From NCBI GenBank assembly GCA_028712355.1, contig JAQTQH010000004.1, positions 9 to 64,008 of the forward strand: 64,000 nt of DNA, in the 5' to 3' direction. Shown here piece after piece: positions 1-50,978 of this stretch. Each line of letters opens with the position of its first letter. The first letter of the stretch is position 1. The DNA comes from Dehalococcoidales bacterium. GTDB taxonomy: Bacteria; Chloroflexota; Dehalococcoidia; Dehalococcoidales; RBG-16-60-22. The position numbers and the translations under genes were made by a program. The notes beneath the pieces were generated by a model that was not told where the DNA came from, did no database searches, and saw nothing but the letters and a program-made list of their open reading frames with translations.

Positions 1-2777
1 TCATGGACTACTGGCTTAAACTGGGCGTCGACGGCATGCGGGTTGATGCAGTGCCGCATCTTTACGAGCGCGAAGGCACCACCTGTGAGAACCTGCCGGA
101 GAGCCATGACTTCATCAAACAAATGCGTGCCCATGTTGACAAGAAATTCAAAGACCGCATGCTCCTTGCCGAAGCGAACCAGTGGCCTGAGGATGCCGCT
201 GCCTACTTCGGTAAAGGCGATGAATTCCACATGGCGTTCCATTTCCCGCTCATGCCGCGCCTGTTTACGGCAATCCAGATGGAAGACCGTTTTCCCATCA
301 TCGATATTCTCCGGCAAACGCCTGCCATACCGGAAAACAGCCAGTGGGCGCTCTTCCTGCGCAATCACGATGAGCTCACCCTGGAGATGGTCACCGACGA
401 GGAACGCGATTATATGTACCGCATCTACGCCGCGAATCCCGCCGCCCGCCTTAACCTGGGCATCCGCCGCCGCCTCGCGCCGCTGCTGAACAACGACCGC
501 CGTAAGATTGAACTGATGAATATCCTGCTCTTTTCTCTGCCGGGGACGCCAGTCATCTACTACGGTGATGAAATCGGCATGGGGGACAACTTCTACCTGG
601 GCGACCGCAACGGGGTCCGCACGCCCATGCAGTGGAGCCCGGACCGCAATGCGGGTTTCTCCCATGCGAATCCTCAAAGGCTTTTCCTGCCGCCGATTAT
701 TGACCCCGAATACCATTATGAAGCCATCAACGTAGAAACCCAGCAGAGCAATTCAGATTCGCTGCTCTGGTGGATGAAGCGCGTCATTGCCCTGCGCAAG
801 CGTTACTCCGCCTTCGGCAACGGCGATATCGAGTTCCTGCACCCGGATAATCGCAAGGTGCTGGCTTTCCTGCGCCGCTACAAGAAAGATAGGCTCGACG
901 AAAATCTCCTTATCGTAGCTAATTTGTCCCATTTACCCCAGCAAACCCAGATTGACCTTTCCGCCTTTCAGGGCTACCGCCCAGTTGACCTGTTCGGGCG
1001 GGTGGAATTCGCCCCCATTACGGATAACAAATATTACTTTACCCTTAGTCCCCATGCTTACTATTGGTTCTCCCTGGAATCCAAGCCTGCCGAATCCCTG
1101 CGCATCCGCTCGCTCCCTGCCGAAGAGGTACGTGAAGTACCGACCATCGCCGAAACCGAGGATGCCCTTTTCCGGAAAGACAACTGGTTCAATTTGGAAA
1201 AACCATTACTGGAATACCTGCGAGGGCGCCGATGGTTCCGCGGTAAAGCACGCCACCCCTGGAAGGTAGACGTCCGCGACGCAATACCTATGGCACTGGG
1301 GGACGGAATGTCCTATTTTGTCCTGGCTGAGGTCAAATACGCCGAAGGAGAGATGGAAACATATGTCCTGCCGCTGATGGTGGCACCGACCGAACAGACG
1401 GAGCTTTTGCTGAAGCAGTACCCCGGCGCCGCGGTCGCCCACCTGCAGCCGAGATATGGCATCGGCGAGCGGCTGCTTTATGATGCCTTCGTGGATAAGC
1501 GCTTCGGGAAAATCCTGCTTGCCGCAATAGCCCGGCGGCGCCGCTTCGAGGGTACCTTCGGCAACATCACTGCCTCTGCCGCCCGCACCATGCGACATGC
1601 TCCCGGCATGAGCGTCCCGGAGCTCGAGCCGGTTCCCCTCAAAGTAGAACAGACGAACTCTTCAATGGTCTACGGCAACAGCTTTATCCTTAAGCTGTAC
1701 CGCAAGCTGGAAGAGGGACTGGCTCCTGATGTGGAAATCGGGCGGTTTCTTACCGAGAAGACATCTTTCGCTTACAGCGCGCGGGTTGCCGGCACTCTGG
1801 ACTACAATCTGGGCAAGAACCCGCCGATGAGCATCGCGGTACTCCATCATTACGTGCCCAATGAAGGCGATGCCTGGCAATACACCCTGGACTCCCTGGA
1901 GCGCTACTTCAAGATCGTGCTGGCGCATCCCACGGTACAGGTCCCCCCCCTCCCTCCCCAACACCTGCTCGTTTTACCTCGTGACCCTCCTGACCTCGCC
2001 AGGGAAACTATCGGGCTTTATTTGAACTCGATGCAGCTTCTCGGGAAGCGTACCGCCGAAATGCACCTGGCGTTGTCCTCATCAACGAATGTCCCTGACT
2101 TCGCGCCGGAGCCATTTACCTATATGTACCAGAACTCACGCTACCAGGCGATGCGGGCTTACGCTACCAGAACGCTGGCGACGCTCCGGAGAGAAATGGG
2201 CAACCTGCCTGAGGACCTGCGGGCTGATGCGCAGCGCGTACTGGAACAGGAAGCCAGTATCATCGAGCGTTTTCAACTCATACGCAACAAAAAAATTGGT
2301 GCCGCCCGCATCCGCATCCATGGTGATTATCATCTGGGACAGGTGCTCTACACCGGCAAGGATTTTGCCATCATTGATTTCGATGGCGAACCCGCGCGCC
2401 CCTTGAGTGAAAGACGGCTCAAGCGCTCGCCGCTGCTCGATGTCGCCGGAATGATACGCTCTTTCCACTATGCCTCCCATAGCGCACTGCTCCGGCAAGC
2501 GCCGCTGGTCGCTAAACCGGAAACGGAACTTCCCATTTTACGACAGTGGGCACGCTACTGGTACCTCTGGGTCTCCGCGGTTTTCCTGAATGCCTATCTG
2601 GACAGCATTGAGCCGGTTAACCTTCTCCCCGACGACCCGGAGCAGCTCAAGATACACCTGGATGCCTTTATCATGGACAAGGCTATATACGAAATCGGAT
2701 ATGAAATGGACAACCGCCCCGATTGGTTGGGTGTCCCGCTTCAGGGTATCCTGCAAATACTAGAGACCGCCGGATAA
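1..2777 (+). CDS. treS: Trehalose synthase / maltokinase fusion (TreS-Mak/Pep2), 5' end cut by window edge
   Basis: The frame is open from the window edge. The N-terminal part carries GH13/TreS motifs (GVDGMRVDAVPHLYE, FLRNHDELTLE, YYGDEIGMGDN). The C-terminal ~450 aa carries a maltokinase-type kinase motif (IHGDYHLGQVLYTGKDFAIIDFDGEP). Confidence 0.85.
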   Translation, partial: MDYWLKLGVDGMRVDAVPHLYEREGTTCENLPESHDFIKQMRAHVDKKFKDRMLLAEANQWPEDAAAYFGKGDEFHMAFHFPLMPRLFTAIQMEDRFPIIDILRQTPAIPENSQWALFLRNHDELTLEMVTDEERDYMYRIYAANPAARLNLGIRRRLAPLLNNDRRKIELMNILLFSLPGTPVIYYGDEIGMGDNFYLGDRNGVRTPMQWSPDRNAGFSHANPQRLFLPPIIDPEYHYEAINVETQQSNSDSLLWWMKRVIALRKRYSAFGNGDIEFLHPDNRKVLAFLRRYKKDRLDENLLIVANLSHLPQQTQIDLSAFQGYRPVDLFGRVEFAPITDNKYYFTLSPHAYYWFSLESKPAESLRIRSLPAEEVREVPTIAETEDALFRKDNWFNLEKPLLEYLRGRRWFRGKARHPWKVDVRDAIPMALGDGMSYFVLAEVKYAEGEMETYVLPLMVAPTEQTELLLKQYPGAAVAHLQPRYGIGERLLYDAFVDKRFGKILLAAIARRRRFEGTFGNITASAARTMRHAPGMSVPELEPVPLKVEQTNSSMVYGNSFILKLYRKLEEGLAPDVEIGRFLTEKTSFAYSARVAGTLDYNLGKNPPMSIAVLHHYVPNEGDAWQYTLDSLERYFKIVLAHPTVQVPPLPPQHLLVLPRDPPDLARETIGLYLNSMQLLGKRTAEMHLALSSSTNVPDFAPEPFTYMYQNSRYQAMRAYATRTLATLRREMGNLPEDLRADAQRVLEQEASIIERFQLIRNKKIGAARIRIHGDYHLGQVLYTGKDFAIIDFDGEPARPLSERRLKRSPLLDVAGMIRSFHYASHSALLRQAPLVAKPETELPILRQWARYWYLWVSAVFLNAYLDSIEPVNLLPDDPEQLKIHLDAFIMDKAIYEIGYEMDNRPDWLGVPLQGILQILETAG

Positions 2778-2785
2778 GTAAAAAG

Positions 2786-4735
2786 ATGGCACAAAAAGAT
2801 ATCAAGATTCGCCAAAGACACATCCATTCCCCAATACGATATGACATTACCCTGCTCACAGATGATGACCTTCACCTCTTCAATGAAGGCACCCACTACC
2901 GTCTTTACGGCAAACTGGGCGCACACCGGATGACGGTAGATGGCAGTCCGGGGACCTATTTTGCCGTCTGGGCGCCTAATGCCAAACAGGTATCAGTCAT
3001 CGGTGAATTTAACGGCTGGAACCGCCACAGCCATCTTCTGCGTCCCCGTGGACAATCCGGCATCTGGGAGGCTTTCATCCCCCATATCGGCAAAGGCATC
3101 ATGTATAAGTACTATATTGCCTCCCATCATAACGCGTACGCCGTGGAGAAAGCAGACCCGCTCGCGCTCCATTGTGAAACGCCCCCCAGTACCGCTTCCA
3201 TAATCTGGGATCTAGAATACCAGTGGCACGACCGCGACTGGATGGTGCAACGCCACGCCCGTAACGCCCTCAGCGCGCCCGCCTCAGTCTACGAGGTACA
3301 TCCCGGTTCCTGGCGACGCGTCCCGGAGGAAGGTTCCCGCCCGTTGACCTACCACGAGCTGGCGCCGCAACTGGCGGAGTATGTTACGAAAATGGGGTTC
3401 ACCCACGTTGAGTTCCTGCCCATTATGGAACATCCCTTTTACGGCTCCTGGGGCTACCAGATTACCGGCTATTTCGCACCCACCAGCCGCTACGGCACCC
3501 CGCAGGACTTCATGTATCTCATTGATTATCTCCACCAGAATAACATCGGCGTTATCCTGGACTGGGTACCTTCCCACTTTCCCGGTGATGAACACGGGCT
3601 GGGTTATTTTGACGGCACCCGGCTCTACGAGCACGCCGACCCCCGCCAAGGCTACCACCCCGATTGGGGCAGCCTGATTTTCAACTACGGACGCCATGAG
3701 GTGCGCAGTTTCCTCCTCAGCAGCGCCATGTTCTGGCTGGACAAGTATCACATTGACGGATTACGCGTGGACGCCGTTGCTTCCATGCTTTACCTAGACT
3801 ATGCCCGCACCGACAGCGATTGGGTACGCAACAAGTACGGAGGGCGGGAAAACCTGGATGCCGTTGCCTTACTGCGTGACTTCAACCGGGCGGTCTACAA
3901 GGAGTACCCGGATGTGCAGACTATCGCCGAGGAGTCCACGTCCTGGCCGCTGGTCTCACGACCCGTCGATAACGGCGGACTGGGCTTCGGGTTGAAATGG
4001 GACATGGGCTGGATGCATGACACGCTGGAATATATGGCTAAAGACCCCGTCTACCGCAAATACCACCAGAACAACCTGACTTTCCGCTCGGTGTACGCAT
4101 TTTCCGAGAACTTCGTCTTGCCCCTCTCCCACGATGAGGTCGTCCACGGCAAAGCATCGCTGCTCGGCAAGATGCCCGGGGATGACTGGCAAAAGTTCGC
4201 CAACCTGCGGCTGCTCCTCGGCTATATGTACGCCCAGCCCGGCAAGAAGTTGCTCTTCATGGGCGGCGAGTTCGGACAGTGGCGGGAATGGACCCACGAA
4301 GAAAGCCTGGACTGGCACCTGCTCAAATACCCGCCTCATTCCGGCTTGCAGCGCTGGGTGACCGACTTAAACCGTCTCTATCGCCAGGAGCCGGCGCTCC
4401 ATGAGAAGGACTGCGAGCCAGCGGGCTTCGCCTGGGTTGACGGCAGCGATGCCGATAGCAGCGTCATCAGCTTCCTCCGTAAAGGCAATAATGAACAAGA
4501 CACTATACTGGTCGTGGGTAACTTCACGCCGGTGGTCAGAGAGAATTACCGCATCGGCGTGCCGCAGCCGGGTTTCTGGCAGGAACTCCTGAACGGCGAT
4601 GCCGGCGAATACGGCGGCAGCGGCGCGGGCAATATGGGCGGCATTACCGCCGAAGCAAAACCGTGGCAGGGTCAGCCTTCTTCTATCAGTATCAAACTTC
4701 CGCCGCTGTGCATTCTGTTTTTCAAGGTAAAATAG
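2786..4735 (+). CDS. glgB: 1,4-alpha-glucan branching enzyme
   Basis: GH13 branching-enzyme motifs are present (HIDGLRVDAVASMLYLDY, IAEESTSWP, LPLSHDEVVHGK). The start is placed at ATG 2786 (MAQKDIK), just after the treS-mak stop. The ORF-track start at 2723 would overlap treS-mak. Confidence 0.9.
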   Translation: MAQKDIKIRQRHIHSPIRYDITLLTDDDLHLFNEGTHYRLYGKLGAHRMTVDGSPGTYFAVWAPNAKQVSVIGEFNGWNRHSHLLRPRGQSGIWEAFIPHIGKGIMYKYYIASHHNAYAVEKADPLALHCETPPSTASIIWDLEYQWHDRDWMVQRHARNALSAPASVYEVHPGSWRRVPEEGSRPLTYHELAPQLAEYVTKMGFTHVEFLPIMEHPFYGSWGYQITGYFAPTSRYGTPQDFMYLIDYLHQNNIGVILDWVPSHFPGDEHGLGYFDGTRLYEHADPRQGYHPDWGSLIFNYGRHEVRSFLLSSAMFWLDKYHIDGLRVDAVASMLYLDYARTDSDWVRNKYGGRENLDAVALLRDFNRAVYKEYPDVQTIAEESTSWPLVSRPVDNGGLGFGLKWDMGWMHDTLEYMAKDPVYRKYHQNNLTFRSVYAFSENFVLPLSHDEVVHGKASLLGKMPGDDWQKFANLRLLLGYMYAQPGKKLLFMGGEFGQWREWTHEESLDWHLLKYPPHSGLQRWVTDLNRLYRQEPALHEKDCEPAGFAWVDGSDADSSVISFLRKGNNEQDTILVVGNFTPVVRENYRIGVPQPGFWQELLNGDAGEYGGSGAGNMGGITAEAKPWQGQPSSISIKLPPLCILFFKVK

Positions 4736-4947: not shown

Positions 4948-5940
4948 TTGGAAATTTCCCGCCGCGAATTTATCCACCGCATGATGACGCTGGGTTTCAG
5001 CACCGCTGCTGCCACCGCTCTTTTCCCGCTGGCTGCCTGCTCTAAAGAGACCGCGCCCCTTCCCATATCTCCAAATGCTCCGCCGTCTACTACGGCACCA
5101 TCACCAACTCCGACATTGACAACGCCGGCAGTAACTGACGGGCTCGCTGTAGTGCGCGGCAAGAGTCCTTCGGCGATTACCGAAGCCGCCGTCAAGGCGC
5201 TGGGCGGCATCGAGCGCTTTGTGAAGCCCGGCAATACAGTGATTATCAAGCCCAACATATGCGTCGCCTATCATACTTACGAATACGCCGCCACGACCAA
5301 CCCGGAGGTCATCAGCACACTGGTACGGCTTTGCCGCGGCGCCGGCGCTCAAAAGGTCAGCGTGATGGATCAGCCCTTCGGCGGCACTGCGGAGCAGGCT
5401 TATCTGAGAAGCGGCATCCAGGAAGCCGTGCGCGCCGCCGGCGGCGAAATGGTGATTATGAGCCGCGCCGGATTTAAAGAGACAAACATCCCCGAAGGCA
5501 AAGATATTAAAAAATGGATGGTCTATAATGACGCCCTCGAAGCTGATGTCCTGATTAACGTGCCCATCGCCAAACATCACAGCCTGGCACGCCTGACATT
5601 AAGTATGAAAAACCTGATGGGACTGGTGCTCGATAGACCACAGTTTCACTTTAATTTACCGCAGCGAGTCGCCGACCTGGCCAGCCTGCTGCGCCCGGAA
5701 TTGACCGTAATCGATGCCGTGCGCATATTGACGAGAAACGGTCCCACGGGCGGCAGCCTCGATGATGTCAAAATGATGAACACGGTCATCGCCGGTACGG
5801 ACTTTGTGGCGATGGACGCCTACGCGGCGACACTCTTCGGCTTGACCGGCGCCGATATTCCGGTTGTCCGGGCGGCGGCGGGCATGGGACTGGGCATGAT
5901 GGACCTGAGCAAAGTCAAAATAACCGAGATAAGCGTATAG
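4948..5940 (+). CDS. DUF362 domain protein, predicted Tat-exported lipoprotein
   Basis: TTG start. The N-terminus MEISRREFIHRMMTLGFSTAAATALFPLAAC has a twin-arginine motif (SRREFI), a hydrophobic core and a lipobox Cys31. A Pro/Thr/Ser linker follows, then a DUF362-like core (VIIKPNICV...NVPIAKHH...MKNLMG). Confidence 0.8.
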   Translation: MEISRREFIHRMMTLGFSTAAATALFPLAACSKETAPLPISPNAPPSTTAPSPTPTLTTPAVTDGLAVVRGKSPSAITEAAVKALGGIERFVKPGNTVIIKPNICVAYHTYEYAATTNPEVISTLVRLCRGAGAQKVSVMDQPFGGTAEQAYLRSGIQEAVRAAGGEMVIMSRAGFKETNIPEGKDIKKWMVYNDALEADVLINVPIAKHHSLARLTLSMKNLMGLVLDRPQFHFNLPQRVADLASLLRPELTVIDAVRILTRNGPTGGSLDDVKMMNTVIAGTDFVAMDAYAATLFGLTGADIPVVRAAAGMGLGMMDLSKVKITEISV

Positions 5941-5951
5941 GAGGAGTAGAG

Positions 5952-7466
5952 GTGGCTGAGGCATTAATAAACCACAAGGGGGAAAAGTCCTCCGCTAAGT
6001 GGCGGTATTTCCGCCGTACTGTACAGGTGCTGGCATTGCTGATCTTCCTGTACCTGCTGCTGGCGACCCGGCAGAACAGCACCACATGGCTGCCCCATGA
6101 CCTTTTCTTCCGCCTCGACCCGCTGACCGGCATCACCGCTATGCTGGCGAGCCATACCTGGATGGCGCCGCTGGCGCTCGGCATCATTACCCTGCTTCTG
6201 ACGCTGGCGGTCTCCCGTGCATGGTGCGGCTGGCTCTGTCCGCTGGGCACTATCCTGGACTGGACGCCGTCACGCCGACTCCGTAAAGACAAGATAGACA
6301 TCCCGTCTTTCTGGCGGCATGGTAAATACCTGCTCCTCGCTGTCATCGTCTTTACCGCCATGCTGGGCAGCCTGACCCTGATTTTTCTCGACCCCATCAC
6401 GCTGCTTTTCCGCGCCATCGCCAGCTTTATTCTGCCCGGGCTTTCCGCCCTGCTGGCAAATACAGGAATCCCGGATTGGCTGAACAATCTGCTGAGAGGT
6501 GCTGTCATCAACGACCAGCCTTTCTGGGGACCGAACGTAGCGATTGCCCTGTTTTTTGCAGTGGTGCTGGTACTCAATGCCATCCGCGCCCGCTTCTGGT
6601 GCCGCTACCTTTGCCCGCTGGGCGGCTTGCTGGGACTGATTGGTAAAATCACATGGCTCCGCCATTATGTGGATGAACACAAATGCATCTCCTGCCGCCG
6701 CTGTGCCATTGCCTGCCCCACCGCCGCCATCGACCCGGCACAGAAATTCGCCGCCAACATCGCTGAATGCATCACCTGCTTGAAATGTGCCGAGGTCTGT
6801 CCCACCCAGGCAATCTCTTTCCGTAATAACTGGAAGTTGGCACCGCAGCACCACGACCCTTCCCGTCGCCGGTTCCTGGTTACCGCCAGCCTGGCGGCGA
6901 TAGCCGCCGCCGTATTGAAAATCGCGCCGCTTATCGGTGAGAGAATCTCATCATTTATCCGTCCGCCCGGCAGCAGCGAGTCATCACTCCAAACAAAATG
7001 CATCCGTTGCGGAGAGTGCGCCCGCGTCTGTCCCACTGGTGTGATTCAGCCAGCCGCACCATCCGGCGCTAAGGGAAAGCTCTGGACGCCGCAACTGGAG
7101 ACGCGCCTTGCCTACTGTGACTTTTCCTGTAACTCCTGCGGACAGGTCTGTCCCACCGGTGCCATCGCACCGCTTGCTCTTGAAGATAAGAGAAAGACCG
7201 TTATCGGCATCGCTAAGATCGACCGCACCCGCTGCATTCCCTGGAACGAGGGAACACCATGTGGTGTGTGCGAAGAGATGTGTCCGGTGCCTCAAAAAGC
7301 TATCGCCTTTAATGAAGGCGGGGGGCAGGGGCGCGGCGGCGGTCGTAACGGCGTGCAGCGCCCCCATGTGCTTGCGGAACTATGCATCGGCTGCGGTATC
7401 TGCGAAACATATTGCCCCGTTCCCGGCGAGTCCGCCATTCGCGTCCTGCCTGCACCAGAAGCCTAG
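5952..7466 (+). CDS. Membrane polyferredoxin, NapH/MauN-like N-half fused to NapG/MauM-like C-half
   Basis: GTG start 11 nt after the DUF362 stop. The N-half has TM helices, two CxxxCP motifs (WCGWLCPLG, FWCRYLCPLG) and two CxxCxxCxxxCP clusters. It is followed by an internal SRRRFLV motif with a hydrophobic helix, then IRPPG...CIRCGECARVCP and three more cluster motifs. Confidence 0.8.
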   Translation: MAEALINHKGEKSSAKWRYFRRTVQVLALLIFLYLLLATRQNSTTWLPHDLFFRLDPLTGITAMLASHTWMAPLALGIITLLLTLAVSRAWCGWLCPLGTILDWTPSRRLRKDKIDIPSFWRHGKYLLLAVIVFTAMLGSLTLIFLDPITLLFRAIASFILPGLSALLANTGIPDWLNNLLRGAVINDQPFWGPNVAIALFFAVVLVLNAIRARFWCRYLCPLGGLLGLIGKITWLRHYVDEHKCISCRRCAIACPTAAIDPAQKFAANIAECITCLKCAEVCPTQAISFRNNWKLAPQHHDPSRRRFLVTASLAAIAAAVLKIAPLIGERISSFIRPPGSSESSLQTKCIRCGECARVCPTGVIQPAAPSGAKGKLWTPQLETRLAYCDFSCNSCGQVCPTGAIAPLALEDKRKTVIGIAKIDRTRCIPWNEGTPCGVCEEMCPVPQKAIAFNEGGGQGRGGGRNGVQRPHVLAELCIGCGICETYCPVPGESAIRVLPAPEA

Positions 7467-7480
7467 TTTCGGCACTGGCA

Positions 7481-8176
7481 CTAGTGACTGATACCGGGGA
7501 AGCGCCTTAGCAATTCGTCGAATGCTTTGAACCAGCTCAGCTGAAGTTCTTCAGACCAGGCAGGGTCAAAAGAAGGGAATTTTGACAGCAGCGCCTCACT
7601 CCAGCCATTCCGTTGTGGAACTATTACCGTTGGTTGTGGAACTTGTATGTTCCTTAATGATTTAGTTCCAGATTTTTTGGCATTTAATTTAGTTCCGGTT
7701 CCATTATCGCTGGAGCGGAACCGTTTCACAATATGCGGTGACAATGGAACTCCGGCATCGGTAGTGAGTGCCACAAAAAACTTAATACACTTGCGCGCAA
7801 CATCTCCCGTAGGCTGGAAGCGGTCCCTGAATACTTCCTGAAGCTGTGCATAGGTTGCCGTTGCCAGGTCGAACGTGCCTTCACTTAAGAAGTTATAGGC
7901 ATCAACCGTAATAACCCGCAGGAGCGATTGCCTTTCCGTGCCTCGAGCTGCCACCAGTCTCTTCAAGCGTTCCGTAGGAAAATCGTTAGCATCGATAAGC
8001 CCCAGAAAACGCAATGAGGCGATCAAGTGCGTTCCGGTACTGCCGGAAAGGGTTTCTCCCCAGAAACTACGGTCGAAACGGGCTGGAATGCCCTGCTGCA
8101 GCCGGTCAACAAAGTTGCGAAACGTACGGTAAGAAACATACGGGGGGAGATGCCGCCGGCTTTTGTCATCTACCAC
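7481..8176 (-). CDS. Hypothetical protein (recalls the DUF5343 family)
   Basis: 231-aa ORF with a GTG start preceded by aggggga at 6-nt spacing. The region is AT-rich. The N-terminal pattern PPYVSYRTFRNFVDRL...SGSTGTHLIASLRFLGLID resembles DUF5343 from memory only. Confidence 0.6.
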   Translation of the reverse strand: MVDDKSRRHLPPYVSYRTFRNFVDRLQQGIPARFDRSFWGETLSGSTGTHLIASLRFLGLIDANDFPTERLKRLVAARGTERQSLLRVITVDAYNFLSEGTFDLATATYAQLQEVFRDRFQPTGDVARKCIKFFVALTTDAGVPLSPHIVKRFRSSDNGTGTKLNAKKSGTKSLRNIQVPQPTVIVPQRNGWSEALLSKFPSFDPAWSEELQLSWFKAFDELLRRFPGISH

Positions 8177-15306: not shown

Positions 15307-16623
15307 ATGTCACCGAAAGTTGCTTTAAAGAGATACGATTCCAGTCCGGAATCATTAAGACAGGTCATTGCCCTGTGTTCAGGTTTTCGAAATCTTAAAT
15401 CAAATTCGAAAATTCTGATTAAACCGAACCTGGTCGTATGGGATAATAAATTTCCAATCCCGCCGTATGGCGTGTTTACCACCACCCGTATTATCGAAGA
15501 TTTAATTATTCTTTTGAAAGAGCAGGGGTGTTCAGACATCACAATTGGGGAAGGCGGCCTCACCATGAAAGGCGAAGCGACAACATTTCCCGCTTTCGAA
15601 GGACTGGGCTACACCGCACTGGCTGAAAAATATGGTGTGCGACTGGTTGATTTTCACAAATCACAGACCGCCATCGCAAAAAACGGCGAAGGTCAACAGA
15701 TACGTTTTGCCAGGGACGCCATCGAAACTGACTTTTTTATAAATGTTCCGGTAATTAAAACGCACAGCCAAACCAAAGTATCCCTGGGCATGAAGAATAT
15801 GAAGGGTTGTCTGAAAACAGTATCACGGAAACAGTTCCATGATACCAGGTATGGACTGGAAAACTGGATCCAATGGCTCCCTGATATCCTTAACCCTGCA
15901 CTCACCATCATCGATGGCATCTATGCCCTGGAAATGGGCGCCCTCCACGTGGGCAGCACCGCACATCGTAAAAATATATTAATCGCGTCCACGGACGCAT
16001 TGGGGGCAGACCTGGTCGGAGCCAAGGCTATCGGCTTTAACGGTGATGAGATCGACCATCTAAAGAAGTATGCAACCCGGACCGGGAAACCACTGCAACT
16101 TGAGGCTTATGAAATAAAAGGAGACTCGCTGGCGGATAATATCACGCCTTTCAAATGGGACTGGAGATGGAATGAGGCTAATACGGGGCCGTATGCCTTC
16201 GAGAAGGCAGGCATACAGGGCATTTCCGTTCCTAAATATGATAGTTCCTTATGTTCGGGATGCAGCCCGCTGGTCAATATGATTAACGTTCTGGTGATGT
16301 CGGCATACAAAGGTGCGCCGTTTGAGAAGATAGAAGTACTTAACGGGAAGAAAATGCAAGCGCAGCCGGGTTTTGATAAAACCCTCCTCATCGGGAATTG
16401 CATTATCGCAGCCAACCGCGCTAATCCTAATATTAAAAAGGCGCTAAAAGTCGCCGGATGTCCGCCTTCAGAAGAAGCTCTGCTCAATGGTTTAAAATCA
16501 GCCGGTATCGAAATAGACCCTGATGCCTATTCGAGGTTTTTAATCCGTCAATCGGAAAAATATCTCGGGAAACCGGATTTTGTTAAAACGTTCTTTGAAT
16601 GCTCAACATCATGCAGCACTTGA
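15307..16623 (+). CDS. DUF362 domain protein (cytoplasmic paralog with Cys-rich C-terminal extension)
   Basis: It shares the DUF362 core with the 4948 gene (ILIKPNLV, NVPVIKTHSQTKVSLGMKNMKG). There is no signal peptide. The C-terminal half has CSGC, GNC, GCPP and ECSTSC motifs. Confidence 0.8.
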   Translation: MSPKVALKRYDSSPESLRQVIALCSGFRNLKSNSKILIKPNLVVWDNKFPIPPYGVFTTTRIIEDLIILLKEQGCSDITIGEGGLTMKGEATTFPAFEGLGYTALAEKYGVRLVDFHKSQTAIAKNGEGQQIRFARDAIETDFFINVPVIKTHSQTKVSLGMKNMKGCLKTVSRKQFHDTRYGLENWIQWLPDILNPALTIIDGIYALEMGALHVGSTAHRKNILIASTDALGADLVGAKAIGFNGDEIDHLKKYATRTGKPLQLEAYEIKGDSLADNITPFKWDWRWNEANTGPYAFEKAGIQGISVPKYDSSLCSGCSPLVNMINVLVMSAYKGAPFEKIEVLNGKKMQAQPGFDKTLLIGNCIIAANRANPNIKKALKVAGCPPSEEALLNGLKSAGIEIDPDAYSRFLIRQSEKYLGKPDFVKTFFECSTSCST

Positions 16624-37743: not shown

Positions 37744-38862
37744 ATGGGCAAGATAAACGTAGCTATTGTTGGAGTCGGCAACTGCTGTTCCGCGCTGGTC
37801 CAGGGCGTCCACTTTTACCGCAACGCTAAAGAAGATGAGTCCGTCCCGGGACTAATGCACGTCAACCTGGGCGGATACCACATCAGCGATATCAACTTCG
37901 TCGCCGCCTTCGATATTGATAAGAACAAGGTGGGTAAGGACCTCTCGCAGGCAATATTCACTTACCCGAACAACACCTACAAGTTCTGCGATGTACCCAA
38001 CCTCGGCGTCAAGGTCAACCGCGGCATGACGCATGACGGACTGGGCAAATACCTCTCTCAGATTATAGAAAAATCCCCCGGCCCCACCGCGGATATCGTC
38101 AAAATCCTCAAGGAAACCAAGACTGACGTCGTATTGAACTACCTGCCAGTCGGCAGCGAAGAAGCCACCAAGTGGTACATCGAGCAGATACTGGCAGCCG
38201 GCTGCGGCATGGTCAACTGTATCCCGGTCTTTATCGCCCGTGAGAAGTACTGGCAGAAACGCTTCGCCGACCGCGGGTTGCCGGTAATCGGCGATGATAT
38301 TAAATCCCAGGTAGGCGCCACCATCACCCACCGTATTCTCACCCGGCTTTTCCGCGACCGCGGCGTTAAGCTGGAGCGCACCTATCAGTTGAACGTCGGC
38401 GGCGATACTGATTTCCTCAACATGCTGGAGCGCGAGCGTCTTGAGTCCAAGAAAATATCCAAGACCAATGCGGTCACTTCACAGCTTGATTATCAAATCG
38501 ACCCCAGAAACATCCATGTCGGACCAAGCGATTATATTCCTTGGCTGGATAACCGCAAGTTCTGCTTTATCAAGATGGAAGGCACGACCTTCGGTAACGT
38601 ACCCCTCAATATGGAAGTTAAGATGGAAGTCTGGGACAGTCCCAACTCCGCCGGCGTCGTTATCGATGCCCTGCGCTGCATCAAGCTCGGCATGGACAAG
38701 GGCTTGAAAGGTGCCCTGGAAGGGCCAGCATCATACTTCATGAAGTCGCCGCCCGTCCAGTATTCCGATGACGAAGCACACCGCCTGACCGAGGAGTTTA
38801 TTAAAACCAACGCTCTGACGGCACCGAAAATCAGCCCGGCGAAGAAGGCTACCAACAAATAG
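37744..38862 (+). CDS. ino1: myo-Inositol-1-phosphate synthase
   Basis: It has the bacterial/archaeal MIPS layout, with [18 protein letters not shown] (NAD-binding), [11 protein letters not shown] and a NVGGDTD-type motif. Confidence 0.9.
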
Positions 38863-38894
38863 ACTCCGGGGCACCCGGACAACGCTGATACCAG

Positions 38895-40052
38895 ATGAAA
38901 ATAGCGCTGGTTTCACCCTATGACTTTGCTTATCCCGGTGGCGTGGTGAACCATATTTCCTGTCTGGAGCATCACCTGACCCGGATGGGCCACGAAGTAA
39001 AGATTATTGCCCCGGCGTCACGCTCGGTGGTTGACTTCGGCGAGCGCTTTATCCCCGTCGGCAAACCACGCTCTCTCCCCGCCAGCGGCTCGGTGGCACG
39101 CATTACCATTTCCCCGTGGATTGCCACCAAGGTGAAGCAGATACTGGAGCGGGAACACTTTGATATTATACACCTGCATGAGCCGTTTATGCCGATGCTA
39201 TGCACAACCGTACTGCGCCTGACCGAGACCCCCGCCGTAGGGACGTTCCACGCCTCCGGCGGCAAGCCCTGGTATAATATCTGTACCCCCGTCGGCAAGT
39301 TTTTCCTGAAAAAATGGTACCGCAAACTCGATGCTAAAATCGCGGTTTCGCCGCCCGCCCTGGGCTATATCTCCAAGTATTTCCCCGGCGAATATACAAT
39401 TCTCCCCAACGGCATTGATACCAACCACTTCCACCCCGACGTCGCCCCCCTCGATGAGTTTAACGACGGCAAACTGAACATCCTCTTCGTCGGGCGGCTG
39501 GAAAAGCGCAAGGGCGTGGACTATCTGCTCGATGCCTACCGGATGTTGAAGCCGGATTTCCCCAACACCAGACTCATCATCGTTGGGCCGGGCGTCCGCT
39601 TGCGCCACAAGTATGAAAAACGGGTGGCAAAAAACCGCCTGACCGATGTCGTCTTCCGCGGTTATGTTTCTTTTGACGATTTGCCCCGCTATTATAAAAG
39701 CGCGACCGTGGTCTGCGCCCCGGCAACCGGCTGGGAGAGCTTCGGCATCGTCCTGCTGGAGGCGATGGCTACCAACAAGCCGCTGGTAGCCTCAAACATC
39801 GAGGGTTATGCCACCGTCGTCAGCGATGGTGAAGACGGGCTGCTGGTGCCTCCGCGCAATTCCGTAAAACTCGCGGAAGCCCTGCGCCGCGTCCTGACCG
39901 ACCCGGCATTACAGCAAAAGCTGGCGGCTCACGGCAGGGAAAAGGCGCTGCGCTACGATTGGAATAATATCACACACCGGCTGGTCGAGGTTTACCAGAA
40001 AGCGGTTTTACAGAAGTCCGCGACCCATAAAGACACCAGAATTCAAAAATAA
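38895..40052 (+). CDS. pimA: GT4 glycosyltransferase, PimA-like (phosphatidylinositol mannosyltransferase candidate)
   Basis: The N-terminus MKIALVSPYDFAYPGGVVNH..GHEV..IAPAS..GSVARI..HLHEP..GTFH parallels mycobacterial PimA as I recall it. The C-terminal GT-B E-x7-E region is present (ESFGIVLLEAMA). Confidence 0.7.
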   Translation: MKIALVSPYDFAYPGGVVNHISCLEHHLTRMGHEVKIIAPASRSVVDFGERFIPVGKPRSLPASGSVARITISPWIATKVKQILEREHFDIIHLHEPFMPMLCTTVLRLTETPAVGTFHASGGKPWYNICTPVGKFFLKKWYRKLDAKIAVSPPALGYISKYFPGEYTILPNGIDTNHFHPDVAPLDEFNDGKLNILFVGRLEKRKGVDYLLDAYRMLKPDFPNTRLIIVGPGVRLRHKYEKRVAKNRLTDVVFRGYVSFDDLPRYYKSATVVCAPATGWESFGIVLLEAMATNKPLVASNIEGYATVVSDGEDGLLVPPRNSVKLAEALRRVLTDPALQQKLAAHGREKALRYDWNNITHRLVEVYQKAVLQKSATHKDTRIQK

Positions 40053-40078
40053 AGAGAAAGTGGCAACTGAGATTAAAT

Positions 40079-40681
40079 ATGGCAAATAAAAACACCGATA
40101 TCCGGAAAAACCTGCAACAGTATTTCACGGAACCGATTGTACGGTTGCTGGCGCGTACTCCATTAACGCCCAATGCCGTTACCATCATCGGCTTTCTGGT
40201 GACGGTGCTGGCGGCCGTATATATTGCAACGGGGGAATTCTTCATCGGCGGAATTATTGTGCTGGCGGCGGGTTTCCTTGATATGCTGGATGGCGCTCTG
40301 GCACGTCTGACCAACCAGACCACCCGTTTCGGCGCCGTGCTGGACTCGACGCTGGACCGCCTTTCTGAAGCCGCCCTGATGCTGGGTATCCTGGTACCCT
40401 TCGCCAGTCAGGGCATGGTCGCGGAAAGCCTGCTGGTCGGTCTCACGCTGGTCGGCTCGCTGATGGTCAGCTATCTCCGCGCCCGCGCGGAAGGTATCGG
40501 TATCGATTGCAAGGTAGGGCTGTTCACCCGTGCCGAAAGGGTCATCGTGCTGGCGCTGGGACTGCTCCTGAGCCAGTTTGATTACGTCCTGGTCATCGCG
40601 CTGGTCATTATCGCCCTGTTCAGCTTTTTCACGGCGGGACAGCGGCTGTGGCACGCCTATCGACAGACCCGGAACACCTGA
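40079..40681 (+). CDS. CDP-alcohol phosphatidyltransferase (phosphatidylinositol-phosphate synthase candidate)
   Basis: The signature D-x2-DG-x2-AR-x8-G-x3-D-x3-D is present (LDMLDGALARLTNQTTRFGAVLDSTLDRLSE). About 6 TM segments. Confidence 0.85.
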   Translation: MANKNTDIRKNLQQYFTEPIVRLLARTPLTPNAVTIIGFLVTVLAAVYIATGEFFIGGIIVLAAGFLDMLDGALARLTNQTTRFGAVLDSTLDRLSEAALMLGILVPFASQGMVAESLLVGLTLVGSLMVSYLRARAEGIGIDCKVGLFTRAERVIVLALGLLLSQFDYVLVIALVIIALFSFFTAGQRLWHAYRQTRNT

Positions 40682-40764: not shown

Positions 40765-42054
40765 ATGCCGGTTATCGCAGTTATCGGGGCACAATGGGGT
40801 GATGAAGGAAAAGGCAAAATCGTGGATATGCTGGCGGAAAAGGTACAGATGGTGGTACGCTTTTCCGGCGGCGATAACGCCGGGCATACGGTCGTCAACC
40901 AGTACGGCGAATTCGGACTGCATCTTGTGCCATCGGGGATTTTCTCCACGCAAGCCACCTGTGTGATTGCCAACGGCGCCATCATTAAGCCGGATGTGTT
41001 GCTCAAGGAGATTGACCTGATTAGAAGTCGCGGCGTGGATACCTCGCGATTATTCATCAGCAACCGCACCCATGTTATCATGCCTTACCACATCCTGTTT
41101 GACGGTCTGGAAGAAGAGGTGCGGGGCGGTAAAGCAATCGGCACGACCCGTAAGGGTATCGGGCCGGCTTATGCCGATAAGATAGCGCGGATGGGCATCA
41201 GAGTAGGCGACCTGCTGGATAAAGACGGCTTACTGGAGCGTCTGCGCCCCGTCCTCGAATATAAGAACAATATCCTGACGAAAATATTTAATGTCAAGCC
41301 TCTTGCGCTGGATGAAGTCTATAACGAGTACATCAAGTATGGCGAGCGCCTGGCACCCTACGTGCGGGACACCGTGACCATGCTGGAAGCGGCGCTGGAC
41401 CGCAAGGAATGGGTACTGATGGAAGGCGCTCAGGGCACGATGCTCGACCCCGATTTCGGTACTTATCCCTACACCACATCATCTTCCCCGATGGCCGGCG
41501 GCGCCTGCACCGGCGCCGGTCTGGGCCCCAGCCGGATAACGCATGTACTGGGCATCTTCAAGGCATACTGCACCCGCGTCGGCGGCGGTCCTATGACCAC
41601 CGAACTAAAGGATGAAATGGGCAACGCTTTACGCGAACGCGGTCACGAATACGGCACGACCACAGGCCGTGCCCGGCGCTGCGGCTGGTTCGATGCGGTC
41701 GCCGCCCGCTACAGCACAATTATCAACGGCTTCACCACCGCTGCCATCACCCGCCTCGATGTACTGGACGGTCTACCGTCGCTCAAGATATGCACCGCTT
41801 ACCGGCTAAACGGCAAGACCATCCATGAGTTTCCCGCCAGCATCGCCGAGCTGGAAAAATGCCAGCCGATTTACGAGGAAGTACCCGGATGGCAGACCTC
41901 GACTAATGATGCCCGCCATTTTGAAGACCTGCCGGAGAATGCCCGCCGTTATGTCAAACGTCTGGAAGAAGTTATCGGCTGTCCGGCGAGCATAATTTCC
42001 GTGGGTATGCGCCGCGAGCAGACCATCCACAAGATAAATATATTGCCGCAGTAG
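40765..42054 (+). CDS. purA: Adenylosuccinate synthase
   Basis: VIGAQWGDEGKGKIVD, GTTRKGIGPAY and GTTTGRARRCGWFD motifs. Confidence 0.95.
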   Translation: MPVIAVIGAQWGDEGKGKIVDMLAEKVQMVVRFSGGDNAGHTVVNQYGEFGLHLVPSGIFSTQATCVIANGAIIKPDVLLKEIDLIRSRGVDTSRLFISNRTHVIMPYHILFDGLEEEVRGGKAIGTTRKGIGPAYADKIARMGIRVGDLLDKDGLLERLRPVLEYKNNILTKIFNVKPLALDEVYNEYIKYGERLAPYVRDTVTMLEAALDRKEWVLMEGAQGTMLDPDFGTYPYTTSSSPMAGGACTGAGLGPSRITHVLGIFKAYCTRVGGGPMTTELKDEMGNALRERGHEYGTTTGRARRCGWFDAVAARYSTIINGFTTAAITRLDVLDGLPSLKICTAYRLNGKTIHEFPASIAELEKCQPIYEEVPGWQTSTNDARHFEDLPENARRYVKRLEEVIGCPASIISVGMRREQTIHKINILPQ

Positions 42055-42153
42055 AACAACTGTCATTGCGAGACGGAAGTTCCTAACCCGACGTATTGTT
42101 GTACGGTTCGACTCTTGTTTTTCCATTCGGCATGAACTATAATCATCTGCAAA

Positions 42154-43526
42154 ATGAAGCCTCTATCTTACAGTGTTACGCTTCTCAGGCAGTGGGACCT
42201 CAGGCTTTTCTTTCTCATATTCTTGTACATGGCATTGCCTCAGTTTTACCGTTCTTACAGCGTGTACTTGATTGGGAACGTGATTCCAGATATTAATGCC
42301 TTAGCTACCGTTGCCCAATGGCAATTCATTGAGTTATTACTCGAGGTAGTACAGGAAACATTCGTCCTTGCTATATTCTTTTTCGTTGGCATGGGAATAC
42401 AAAATAAACAAGGGCCCGGCTACCCTATTAGAACATCAATCACCTTGATATTCTTCTTTTCTATCGTCCTCTCTGTAACACTTTTTCTTATATCCTCTCA
42501 TTTCGTTACAATTATTGGGACACCTGAAACTATACGAGAAACGACATCAACGTTCCTGAAGATAAAAACCGCCGGCATCCCAGTATTCTTATTAAGTGCT
42601 GCGTCTGTAGTTATTGTCGAGACCATAAATCGTAAGAGGATTATCTTTATCCTCGCGATAATGCAGGTGGTTTATCGCTTTATTCTGGATAGCCTCTTTT
42701 ATGGCGGGTATTCATTTTCTCTCGATATAGGAATATTGGGAGTTGCCTGGGCGGATGTGTTGTCCAGCCTATTATTATTAATTACAGCTTTGATACTCAT
42801 AAAACCTTTCGCCTTCGATAAGTTAAATAGCTTAAAGTCATTCTTCACACTAAAAGATTGGAGGACTTATCTCAGAGTAGGAATATGGTCGGGATTAGAT
42901 AGCCTAATCAGGAACGTCGCCTACTTTTTTATGATTGTCAGGCTGCTTAACCTATTGGGGGCGAATTCTATCGGTGGATATTATCTGACGATGCATATTT
43001 TCTGGAGTTTCCTGCTAGTGCCCATTCTTGCTATTTCTGAGAGCGCCAAAGTATTGATGCTAATAACTCAGCGAACATTAATAAGGTTAGATCCTTGTGG
43101 TATGCGTCTCTAATTGTTGGAGGGTTTATAACAATTCTCTGGCTAACATTTTTGCCGTTTTGGGGTCTTTTTGCAGGATTTCTAAACTCTAATCAAGAGA
43201 TTGTCAGCTTCTCAACAAAGGCTATGGGAATATTGATTTTCCCTTATATTCTATTCGCACTTAATACCATTACAGATAGCATCTTCTACGGTGTCGGGAA
43301 AACTCAATATCAGGCTTATCAGTCGATAATTACTAATGGAACAGTTTATGTTATTGCTTTTACAGCCTATTTAGCAGGGCTATGGTCACCAACATTCACG
43401 TCTATTTTGGCACTTTTCAGCATAGGGATTCTCGTCGATTCCTTGCTCACAGTTCGCTATGCAATTAAAGTACTATTTCCGAAAGAAAGGCGCGTAGAAA
43501 GATATAAAATTGTTGAGCTTACTTAA
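42154..43526 (+). pseudogene. MATE-family efflux transporter interrupted by a frameshift
   Basis: Two adjacent ORFs (42154..43113 and 43095..43526) total about 460 aa, all TM-rich. The reading frame changes around 43057-43065: ...SAKVLM in one frame continues as ANNSANINKVRSLWYASLIVGG in the other. The region is AT-rich. Confidence 0.65.
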
Positions 43527-43577
43527 CCGTCAGTATGGAGAGAAAGGGAATTTCATCCGCATCTCACATCAACCAAT

Positions 43578-43617
43578 AAAAACAGAGGGGGCAGAAAATT
43601 CTGCCCCCTCTGTTTTT
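43578..43617. terminator. Bidirectional rho-independent terminator between MATE (+) and dapA (-)
   Basis: Perfect palindrome aaaaacagagggggcagaa-aa-ttctgccccctctgttttt, with A/T tracts on both sides. Confidence 0.7.
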
Positions 43618-43631
43618 GAGTCTGCCTCGTC

Positions 43632-44525
43632 TTATTTTACCGGCAAATCAATGGTGAACTTCTTCAGGGTTTCCTTGATGAACGCCGCCGATTTTTCGTC
43701 CGGCTCCACCAGCGGCAGGCGCGGCTTGCCCACGCGGAAGCCAATCTGGTTCAACGCGTATTTCACCGGGCTGGGATTGGAGACGATGAACATCGCCTTG
43801 ACCATCAGCATAAGGCGGTGATGGATGGCGGCAGCTTCGGCGGTCTTGCCGCTGACGATGTAGTTAATCATATCTTTAATCTGTTTGCCGACCAGGTGAG
43901 AGATAACGCTGATGATGCCGTAGCCACCCATATTCATAATGGGGAAGGTATCGCCATCATTGCCGCTCCAGATTAAGAAACCTTTCTTCGCACCGGTGAT
44001 TACTTTGGACACGTGCTCCATGTTGGCGCTGGCTTCTTTCAGTCCGATGATATTATCAATCTGACTGAGCCTGATGATGGTCTCGGCGTCCAGGTTGGCG
44101 ACGGTGCGCGAGGGCACGTTATAGAGGATGCAGGGCAGCTTTGTGCTCTGGGCGATGGTCTTGAAATGCTGGTATAAGCCTTCCTGGGTAGGGCGATTGT
44201 AGTAGGGCACCACCAGCAGACAGGCATCGACACCGATTTTCTCGGCTTCCTGCGTCGCTTCTACCGCCTCGGCAGTGCTGTTGCTGCCGGTGCCGGCGAT
44301 GACTGAACCATTCTTGCCGACCGCCTTCTTGATTTCGGCAAAGAGCTTGAGCTCTTCTTCCCGGACCAGCGTCGGCGATTCGCCGGTCGTGCCGACGACT
44401 ACCAGCCCGTCGCTCCCCGAAGCGAGCAGCGCCAGTGCCAGCTTTTTCGCCTGCTCATAATCTACTGCGCCGCTTTCCGTAAATGGGGTCACCATGGCGG
44501 TTATCAATCGTCCCAGTTCTTTCAT
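43632..44525 (-). CDS. dapA: 4-hydroxy-tetrahydrodipicolinate synthase
   Basis: LITAMVTPF, VVGTTGESPTL, a YNVPSRT motif and the Schiff-base Lys region (IGLKEAS). Confidence 0.95.
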   Translation of the reverse strand: MKELGRLITAMVTPFTESGAVDYEQAKKLALALLASGSDGLVVVGTTGESPTLVREEELKLFAEIKKAVGKNGSVIAGTGSNSTAEAVEATQEAEKIGVDACLLVVPYYNRPTQEGLYQHFKTIAQSTKLPCILYNVPSRTVANLDAETIIRLSQIDNIIGLKEASANMEHVSKVITGAKKGFLIWSGNDGDTFPIMNMGGYGIISVISHLVGKQIKDMINYIVSGKTAEAAAIHHRLMLMVKAMFIVSNPSPVKYALNQIGFRVGKPRLPLVEPDEKSAAFIKETLKKFTIDLPVK

Positions 44526-49270: not shown

Positions 49271-49468
49271 ATGCCGTTTCGCATGGGACCATGGGAAATC
49301 GCCCTCATTCTGGCAATCATACTCATCATCTTCGGCGTCGGCAAATTGCCGCAGGTCGGCAGCGCCCTCGGCAAAGGCATCCGCATGTTCAAGAAAGCCC
49401 AGTCCGGCGAGGATGAAGAATCAAAGGAAAAACCCAAAGACACTCCCGAAAAGACGGAAAAGAGCTGA
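49271..49468 (+). CDS. tatA: Twin-arginine translocase subunit TatA
   Basis: [39 protein letters not shown] is the canonical TatA TM plus amphipathic helix. Confidence 0.85.
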
Positions 49469-49514
49469 CCGTCATTTGCCGCTTCTTAGACCGGTAAACT
49501 GACAGACAAGGACT

Positions 49515-49751
49515 ATGGATTTTTTCGGAATGGGTTTTGGGGAAATTCTCCTCATTCTCATCATCGCCCTCATCATCTGGGGTCCCGGCAAGCTGCCGGA
49601 AATCGCCCGTACCATCGGCAAGACCGCGCGCGCCCTGCGCAAAGCCAGTACCGACTTCACCAGCGCGATTACCCGGGAAATCGAGGAAGAAGAGAAGGCG
49701 AAGCCGCCTCCGCTTCCTCCCGCGAAAGGCAGCGACACTAAAAATGACTGA
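49515..49751 (+). CDS. tatB: Twin-arginine translocase subunit TatA/TatB paralog
   Basis: FGMGFGEILLILIIALIIWGPGKLPEIARTIGKTARALRKA. Its stop overlaps the tatC start (ATGACTGA). Confidence 0.75.
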   Translation: MDFFGMGFGEILLILIIALIIWGPGKLPEIARTIGKTARALRKASTDFTSAITREIEEEEKAKPPPLPPAKGSDTKND

Positions 49752-50882: not shown

Positions 50883-50978
50883 GGGAGCGCATAAGCCCCG
50901 GTGGACTTCGCGGACTTCAAATCCGTTGGGGGGCACGTCAGTGTCTTCGGTGGGTTCGACTCCCATGCGCTCCCGCCA
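50883..50978 (+). tRNA. selC: tRNA-Sec (selenocysteine, anticodon TCA)
   Basis: The 8-bp acceptor stem pairs GGGAGCGC with GCGCTCCC, followed by G-CCA. The anticodon loop is CTTCAAA. It has a long variable arm and T-arm TGGGTTCGACTCCCA, for 96 nt. It closely parallels E. coli selC in the GGACTTCAAATCC and GGTTCGACTCC blocks. Confidence 0.9.

Follow-up and report, generated by a model that had tools for sequence, protein, structure and literature searches.

A Tat-signal DUF362 lipoprotein with a LarA-like fold is encoded in a conserved module with a NapH/NapG-like polyferredoxin

Results

Two adjacent genes encode a DUF362 lipoprotein and a polyferredoxin

We analysed a stretch of 64,000 nt from a Dehalococcoidales metagenome-assembled genome (called hereafter the window), and in it a pair of adjacent genes: gene 1, which encodes a DUF362 lipoprotein with a twin-arginine translocation (Tat) signal, and gene 2, which encodes a membrane-bound polyferredoxin (Table 1). 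A first-pass annotation, read from the DNA sequence, had reported this pair; both open reading frames (ORFs) were confirmed, as was the start of gene 2 at 11 nt past the stop codon of gene 1. Gene 1 begins with TTG and has a ribosome-binding site, GAGGAA, 7–8 nt upstream. Gene 2 begins with GTG, and the spacer that precedes it contains GGAGGAG. No riboswitch or regulatory RNA was found upstream of gene 1.

Table 1. Positions in the window of the two genes, their predicted parts and the tat genes (HMM, hidden Markov model; pLDDT, predicted local distance difference test score of AlphaFold).
Feature	Position (nt)	Strand	Basis
Gene 1, DUF362 (LarA-fold) lipoprotein with Tat signal, 330 aa	4948-5940	+	ORF, PF04015, AlphaFold, Foldseek
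Twin-arginine motif SRREFI (residues 4-9), hydrophobic region, LAAC lipobox (28-31)	4957-5040	+	sequence reading
Flexible Pro/Thr/Ser-rich linker (residues 32-62)	5041-5133	+	composition, low pLDDT
Putative active-site segment (K209, H211, K221, H234, D256)	5572-5715	+	invariant columns, Pfam HMM mapping
Gene 2, polytopic polyferredoxin (NapH-like/NapG-like fusion), 504 aa	5952-7466	+	ORF, NCBIfam
NapH-like half: membrane helices, two CxxxCP motifs, cytoplasmic 2x[4Fe-4S] ferredoxin domain (C245-C283)	5952-6839	+	hydropathy, TIGR02163, Fer4_5
Internal Tat-type signal anchor: SRRRF (304-308), then membrane helix 310-328	6858-6935	+	R305/R306 invariant, HMM
NapG-like extracytoplasmic domain, four [4Fe-4S] motifs, 16 Cys	6963-7466	+	NF007012, motifs, conservation
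tatA, tatA/B, tatC	49271-50469	+	Pfam TatA_B_E (E=1.8e-19, 1.5e-14), TatC (E=2.9e-62)

The predicted gene 1 protein starts M-E-I-S-R-R-E-F-I, and a region of moderate hydrophobicity (residues 13–31) runs up to the lipobox cysteine, C31. At motif level, the S/T-R-R-x-F-L motif, the hydrophobic region and the lipobox cysteine are therefore all present. The linker that follows is about 65% Pro, Thr and Ser, is modelled by AlphaFold with a pLDDT of 56–69 and without secondary structure, and leads into the folded part of the protein (residues ~64–330). The DUF362 domain named in the first-pass annotation was found by Pfam at residues 98–294 (PF04015, E=1.4e-49; 169.3 bits against a gathering cutoff of 24).

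The Pfam TAT_signal HMM gave no match to the gene 1 N-terminus at E<=10, which is a fair point against the Tat assignment. We keep this assignment because of the motif and its conservation in the family. R5 and R6 are invariant in an alignment of 23 DUF362 sequences, and the arginine pair was found in about 113 of 150 diverse DUF362 cluster representatives. Complete N-termini were available for 129 DUF362 ORFs linked to a polyferredoxin; 117 of these had the pair, 108 the strict xRRxF[LIVMA] motif and 54 a lipobox. The Tat lipoprotein signal proposed in the first pass is thus supported by its motifs and the conserved arginines, and not by the Pfam model. Chloroflexota are usually monoderm, so that “periplasmic” is better read here as the outer face of the cytoplasmic membrane. 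Such a location would suit the lipobox and linker of gene 1, both of which may hold the enzyme at the membrane.

The N-terminal half of gene 2 contains hydrophobic segments at residues ~20–44, 65–87, 127–173 and 193–211, CxxxCP motifs at C92/C96 and C217/C221 with two Fer4_5 matches in Pfam, and two CxxCxxCxxxCP motifs (245–256 and 273–284). The internal RRRF sequence is matched by the UCR_Fe-S_N (Rieske Tat-signal) HMM with E=2e-4. The rule for a handover from Sec to Tat is a last helix of low hydrophobicity with positive charges behind it (PMC5449189); the helix after RRRF in gene 2 has a mean Kyte-Doolittle value of 2.05, which is not especially low, with K323 inside the helix and R330 and R337 after it. 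The C-terminal half has an IRPPG sequence at 336–340 and cluster motifs at 350–361, 389–401, 428–445 and 478–489. In an alignment of 18 sequences, gene 2 and its relatives share all 28 cysteines, R305/R306 and the RPPG motif without exception; 16 of these cysteines are predicted to lie outside, eight belong to the cytoplasmic ferredoxin domain and four to the pair of CxxxCP motifs. This topology is proposed because of the hydropathy profile and the homology to an experimentally tested polyferredoxin, described below.

Curated HMMs matched both halves. The N-terminal half was matched by the NapH/MauN model TIGR02163 (E=1.2e-30, 106.9 bits, cutoff 213) and by the NapH model NF007013 (E=5.4e-30, 104.5 bits, cutoff 234), whereas the NapG model NF007012 matched residues 300–501 (E=8.5e-28, 97.2 bits, cutoff 269) and the MauM/NapG model TIGR00397 scored 78.6 bits (E=4.7e-22, cutoff 178.9). 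Since these scores are about half the curated cutoffs or less, we call the halves NapH-like and NapG-like rather than orthologs of NapH and NapG. The architecture recognised in the first-pass annotation was upheld, without the two halves being NapH and NapG proper. Most homologs of gene 2 have about 11 residues more than it does in the loop joining hydrophobic regions 3 and 4 (alignment columns ~180–190). The deletion at this site is larger in P0234, a polyferredoxin homolog that has no DUF362 gene beside it.

The presence of both modules in one polypeptide, which the first-pass annotation had singled out, is real and already described. Tooke et al. (eLife 2017, PMC5449189) defined “polytopic polyferredoxins” as fusions of NapH and NapG that have five predicted membrane helices, the last of them directly preceded by a twin-arginine motif. 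For one of them, Q1NSB0 of MLMS-1, their experiments showed Tat to translocate the C-terminal part and Sec the helices before it. Gene 2 resembles this protein in being a NapH-like plus NapG-like fusion with the arginine pair directly before the last helix, and its cysteine complement would fit about three cytoplasmic and four external clusters, the arrangement that these authors propose. It differs in that Tat dependence was shown for the MLMS-1 homolog, whereas gene 2 is known from sequence. The homologs listed by these authors come from Anaerolinea, Nitrospirae, Caldithrix, Latescibacteria and one Thermoplasmatales archaeon (PMC5449189), a list that covers phyla in which we found the DUF362 module. 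Their study deals with membrane insertion only, and mentions no partner, no function and no DUF362 protein.

The DUF362-polyferredoxin pairing is conserved in at least ten phyla

The neighbourhoods of homologous genes were examined in both directions. For the forward scan, one genome per species was searched with the 23-sequence DUF362 alignment as query, which gave 80 loci labelled as belonging to at least ten phyla. At 75 of the 80 loci, from Chloroflexota, Spirochaetota, Calditrichota, Latescibacterota, Zixibacteria, Nitrospirota, Acidobacteriota, Ignavibacteria/Cytophagia, Actinomycetota and Deltaproteobacteria, an ORF that matches the NapH-like as well as the NapG-like half was located directly downstream on the same strand. 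It usually abuts or overlaps the DUF362 gene, and start and stop codons often overlap. A single fused ORF was present at about 72 of the 75 paired loci, and at the other three the halves seem to be split or frameshifted. The five exceptions include L007, which runs off its contig, and L034, which carries an unusual DUF362 fusion described below.

For the reverse scan, metagenomes were searched with seeds for the NapH-specific CxxxCP motifs. This yielded 80 full-length polyferredoxins of 34–58% identity, all of them fused (80/80). The count was limited to the 58 polyferredoxin loci with at least 1 kb of upstream sequence. Under a strict filter, 49 of these had a DUF362 gene upstream on the same strand, and about 51 when L092 and L145 are added; L092 failed the filter solely through an overlap of ORFs taken from stop to stop. 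At L145, two tandem Tat-DUF362 genes lie downstream of the polyferredoxin.

Over both directions the two genes are adjacent in 88–94% of cases, at about 126 independent loci. The pairing is therefore strongly conserved, well beyond chance, and the association of Tat-DUF362 with a NapGH-like gene, first noticed at this single locus, holds across genomes. No description of this partnership was found in the literature. In an all-against-all clustering of neighbouring ORFs, no third conserved neighbour family was detected besides DUF6599, which points to a self-contained two-gene module. DUF6599 (PF20244), a secreted protein of about 300 aa, was found at ten of the 80 genome loci (L005, L006, L007, L011, L013, L015, L058, L067, L074 and L083), in five of them between the DUF362 and polyferredoxin genes, and it may be an optional third component of the module.

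Some polyferredoxin genes have other neighbours. We observed a Tat-signal FAD_binding_2 flavoprotein (L154), a NuoE/NuoF-like NADH-dehydrogenase module (L149), an aldehyde:ferredoxin-oxidoreductase (AOR)-like protein (L093 and L101) and DUF4230 (L101 and L139), and at three loci (L002, L095 and L109) there was no recognisable neighbour. The cytoplasmic partners at L149, L093 and L101 suggest that the polyferredoxin may be fed from the cytoplasmic side there. Our reading is that the polyferredoxin is a general transmembrane electron module, with DUF362 as its main partner.

DUF362 proteins also occur in other contexts. At L034 (3190–7050), an ORF of 1287 aa joins a GH13 alpha-amylase to a C-terminal DUF362 domain, with no polyferredoxin nearby. 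Extracellular CBM9-DUF362-dockerin fusions have been published, and elsewhere DUF362 is often fused to Fe-S or ferredoxin domains (PMC5742341). Together, the GH13 and CBM9-dockerin fusions hint at a carbohydrate link for extracellular DUF362 proteins.

DUF362 resembles LarA in fold and, by sequence register, in three of four signature residues

The first-pass annotation had described DUF362 as a family with no assigned function. This is still so, as no functional study of DUF362 or PF04015 was found in our literature search. The family is large: at E<=1e-3, over 6,800 cluster representatives were found. It is not featureless. The AlphaFold model of gene 1, built with a 120-sequence alignment, has a mean pLDDT of 92 and values above 95 from residue 71 on. 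When it was compared with the PDB by Foldseek, the top 19 matches were all LarA or LarA homologs (E=3e-7 to 3e-4, query TM-score 0.36–0.50), and the matches after these were generic Rossmann folds with E>5e-3.

The relationship is visible in sequence models as well. DUF362 and the DUF2088 domain of LarA are known to share a Pfam clan, CL0471 (PMC11770544). The Pfam DUF362 HMM scores 26 bits, against a cutoff of 24, on a genuine LarA that is 89% identical to the crystallised enzyme, with LarA residues 82–245 aligned to HMM positions 18–171. A search for LarA homologs returned relatives at 73–99% identity only, and genuine LarA proteins carry PF04015 matches. Neither Lar_N (PF09861) nor LarA_C (PF21113) was found in gene 1, in which PF04015 was the only match at E<=0.01.

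Seven residues of gene 1 (P119, K209, H211, K221, G225, H234 and D256) are invariant in the 120 DUF362 sequences, which share 34–59% identity. Their register relative to LarA was determined by placing truncated segments of both proteins on the coordinates of the Pfam DUF362 HMM. The LarA sequence used is identical to chain A of 5HUQ, and its numbering was confirmed. Segments of gene 1 ending at H211, K221 and H234 reached HMM positions 111, 121 and 136, respectively. The LarA segment ending at K184 reached position 121 (E=0.014, and E=7e-4 for a longer segment), so that K184 is matched to K221. The alignment of the longer segment ends at LarA residue 194, position 130; gapless extension from there brings H200 to position 136, that of H234. 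H174 falls at position 111, that of H211, in a gapless register. For both H174 and K184 the register was the same by hhalign and hmmsearch. All these equivalences are ones of sequence, not of superposed structures; that of K184 and K221 does not extend to cofactor attachment, and those of H174 and H200 with H211 and H234 rest on the register and on gapless extension, not on an alignment endpoint. The last residue considered, LarA H108, is at position 44 and maps to F144 of gene 1, which is not conserved.

We take His174 of LarA to be its catalytic acid/base, Lys184 the tether of the cofactor, nickel-pincer nucleotide (NPN), and His200 a nickel ligand. Of the catalytic histidine pair of LarA, H174 is thus matched by H211, whereas H108 has no counterpart in DUF362. 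As judged from this register, DUF362 has the LarA fold together with three of the four signature residues of LarA. A lysine tether of NPN, and a His/Lys motif as a marker of NPN binders, have been described (PMC13524815), and LarA homologs with one catalytic histidine exist (PMC12611868).

A sequence search of the PDB with DUF362 gave no match at E<=1 with the single sequence, and only noise with the 120-sequence profile. By hhalign, the DUF362 profile aligned to a single LarA sequence in the expected register with E=0.26. Against a 123-sequence LarA profile, and also with a broadened DUF362 profile, other, non-significant matches were obtained (DUF362 61–101 with LarA_C 274–316). As these matches differ, profile-profile comparison alone cannot fix the register, which is why the Pfam HMM coordinates were used.

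The window contains a second DUF362 gene (15307–16623, + strand, 438 aa, Pfam E=2.8e-36), located in a stretch of low GC content (0.448). Its predicted product is cytoplasmic, without signal peptide, and is extended at the C-terminus by some 200 residues rich in Cys. It retains the K..H..K..H..D motif (VIKTH, GMKN, QFH, IIDG) without a polyferredoxin.

Discussion

The module compared with known systems

We classify the module as a NapGH-type electron module that would serve an uncharacterised catalytic subunit. It shares with NapGH of E. coli and Wolinella succinogenes the same two modules with the same predicted sidedness, and would follow the same proposed logic, in which an Fe-S protein of the membrane hands electrons on to a catalytic subunit exported by Tat. 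It differs from NapGH in that gene 2 is one polypeptide instead of two, and that its partner is DUF362 rather than a molybdoenzyme or cytochrome; no napA or napB, molybdopterin or cytochrome gene was found among the window ORFs scanned. A Tat-exported catalytic subunit fed with electrons of the respiratory chain by a dedicated membrane partner encoded next to it is also found in MsrPQ (YedYZ; PMC5449189), which by contrast uses molybdenum cofactor and haem b, has different folds and a known substrate. Compared with LarA, DUF362 is shorter (~270 residues versus ~424), is predicted to be exported by Tat and is proposed to be coupled to an Fe-S chain. No LarA homolog that is exported or linked to electron transfer was found in the literature.

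What was already known is the polyferredoxin family and the clan membership of DUF362. The conserved module, the Tat-exported DUF362 subfamily and the match to the signature residues of LarA appear to be new, as they were not found in the literature searched.

A proposed role for DUF362

In our view, DUF362 is probably the catalytic redox partner of the polyferredoxin, loaded with a cofactor, located outside the cytoplasm and in complex with gene 2. The NapH-like half of gene 2 would be embedded in the membrane, its Fe-S clusters facing the cytoplasm, and the internal twin-arginine helix would take the four-cluster NapG-like domain outside by dual Sec/Tat insertion, resulting in a chain of about 6–7 [4Fe-4S] clusters across the membrane. 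Gene 1 would fold in the cytoplasm, most likely bind its cofactor there, and then be exported by Tat. Binding in the cytoplasm would account for the conserved Tat signal, and the conservation of this signal on a protein that has no conserved cysteine suggests such an insertion before export. In the Dehalococcoidales host, the lipid anchor and flexible linker would tether DUF362 beside the NapG-like domain, on which it would dock. Substrate chemistry would take place at the H211/K221/H234 pocket, in an active site built from the invariant His211, Lys221, His234, Lys209 and Asp256, and electrons would move between this site and the menaquinone pool, or a cytoplasmic donor. The conserved basic residues K101, K209, R230 and R259 suggest an anionic substrate, as are the hydroxy acids of LarA.

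Several points weigh against this proposal. That the two proteins interact and that DUF362 is a catalyst are inferences, as are its cofactor, the link to quinol, the direction of electron flow and the substrate. DUF362 itself lacks conserved cysteines and any recognisable motif for a redox cofactor. The quinol link of the polyferredoxin and the placing of DUF362 at the catalytic end, both already put forward in the first-pass annotation, are drawn by analogy, the former to NapGH, and the quinol-dehydrogenase function would thereby be moved from NapH and NapG to a protein that scores far below their cutoffs. The AlphaFold model of gene 2, made with the 18-sequence alignment, has a pLDDT of 43.6 and is unusable for topology. 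The pairing is not obligatory: polyferredoxins without DUF362 were found at L002 and at seven of the 58 loci of the reverse scan, and Tat-DUF362 genes without polyferredoxin at L046 and L054. Finally, the chemistry of LarA-type enzymes is a redox-neutral shuttling of hydride which needs no external electron chain.

This last point is the main difficulty for a more specific version of the proposal, in which the cofactor is of the nickel-pincer type. Synthesis of NPN, or of a pyridinium-metal cofactor related to it, and its attachment to Lys221 would both take place in the cytoplasm, and Tat would then export the holo-enzyme. The hydride would then not be returned to the substrate; instead its two electrons would pass singly into the seven-cluster polyferredoxin, joining an extracytoplasmic C-H oxidation or reduction to the respiratory chain. 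The substrate would perhaps be a hydroxy acid or a sugar; fusions to CBM9 or GH13 domains occur in other DUF362 proteins. A second difficulty is that larB, larC and larE were absent from the ORFs scanned in the window, and that no family of lar type recurs beside the module. We put this version forward tentatively, as a possible but rather doubtful one. A 2026 Nat Chem paper on NPN enzymes asks which enzymes besides LarA use the nickel-pincer cofactor (PMC13524815); it was considered as a possible prior claim for DUF362 and set aside, as the enzymes that it describes have the AKR fold.

Other roles can be conceived for DUF362. It could catalyse a redox-neutral isomerisation, racemisation or hydrolysis, as a LarA-like enzyme or a modified-lysine metalloenzyme that is co-transcribed with the polyferredoxin and exchanges no electrons with it, both proteins serving for instance one extracytoplasmic pathway. 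All characterised enzymes of the LarA family are indeed racemases or epimerases without an electron donor (PMC11770544, PMC13524815), and the extracellular DUF362 domains fused to CBM9/dockerin (PMC5742341) or to the GH13 amylase of L034 have no polyferredoxin. However, an adjacency of 88–94% with frequent overlaps, in at least ten phyla and with no third gene, is typical of subunits of a complex, and DUF362 has repeatedly been fused to ferredoxin domains (PMC5742341), so that we consider a redox-neutral role unlikely. Alternatively, DUF362 could be a non-catalytic lipoprotein accessory that docks on, stabilises or matures the exported NapG-like domain, in which case the polyferredoxin itself would reduce a soluble or insoluble extracellular acceptor, or an enzyme encoded elsewhere. 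The lack of a conserved cysteine or obvious redox motif would be expected of such an accessory, and the loci in which the polyferredoxin occurs without DUF362 indicate that other partners, or none, suffice. In contrast, the fold is that of an enzyme and its solved relatives are all enzymes, and the seven invariant residues are mostly polar and of active-site type (K, H, K, H, D). These residues are retained in the cytoplasmic paralog, which has no polyferredoxin, and Tat export is conserved where Sec would do for a simple scaffold. An accessory role therefore seems to us quite improbable.

That the adjacency of the two genes is a coincidence or an annotation artefact can practically be dismissed. 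Apart from being a general possibility, it could only draw on the TTG and GTG start codons, whereas both ORFs have strong ribosome-binding sites, each gene has thousands of homologs, and the recurrence of the pairing at about 126 independent loci refutes it.

The conserved pairing, together with the fold and three key residues shared with LarA, makes DUF362 a testable candidate for a new respiratory-type enzyme. Their occurrence as one conserved module in many anaerobic phyla, among them Chloroflexota, Acidobacteriota/Aminicenantes, Nitrospirota and Zixibacteria, places both proteins in a functional context; the polyferredoxin has so far been studied as a membrane-insertion model only. Such a module suggests a redox reaction outside the cytoplasm, as yet uncharacterised, which may be widespread in sediments and the subsurface. 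The link to the active site of LarA bears on the open question of which enzymes other than LarA use NPN (PMC13524815). An NPN-dependent DUF362 would help account for the many genomes that make NPN yet have no LarA. Should it also catalyse net redox chemistry, it would be the first NPN enzyme to do so and the first outside the cytoplasm, which would be categorically new. Should DUF362 contain another cofactor, its identification would still be new biochemistry.

Other genes of the window

Upstream of the module, on the same strand and separated from it by a gap of 212 nt, are a trehalose-synthase/maltokinase-like ORF (3–2777) and a glgB-like branching enzyme (2723–4735), both recognised from their translations, not by HMM. 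These treS- and glgB-like genes were considered as functional neighbours of the module and rejected, as their adjacency is not conserved at other loci. On the other side, an ORF on the minus strand (7481–8176), convergent with gene 2, has a weak match to DUF5343 (25.7 bits, below the cutoff of 27).

The tatA/tatB/tatC set reported in the first-pass annotation was borne out by Pfam: two TatA/B-family genes are at 49271–49468 and 49515–49751, followed by a TatC ORF which ends at 50469. These genes encode the export machinery that both proteins would need, and are located 42 kb away from the module, outside its operon.

The stretch of lowest GC content in the window (0.427) is at 42001–44000 and contains an ORF of 319 aa (42154–43113, + strand) without a Pfam match. 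Genes for a myo-inositol-1-phosphate synthase, a GT4 glycosyltransferase and a CDP-alcohol phosphatidyltransferase are clustered at 37744–40681 (+ strand), which suggests synthesis of inositol-containing lipids. A tRNA-Sec gene (50883–50974, + strand, Rfam 74.8 bits) is accompanied by selB (55374–57227) and selA (57926–59293) on the minus strand. The presence of this selenocysteine machinery indicates that the organism makes selenoproteins.

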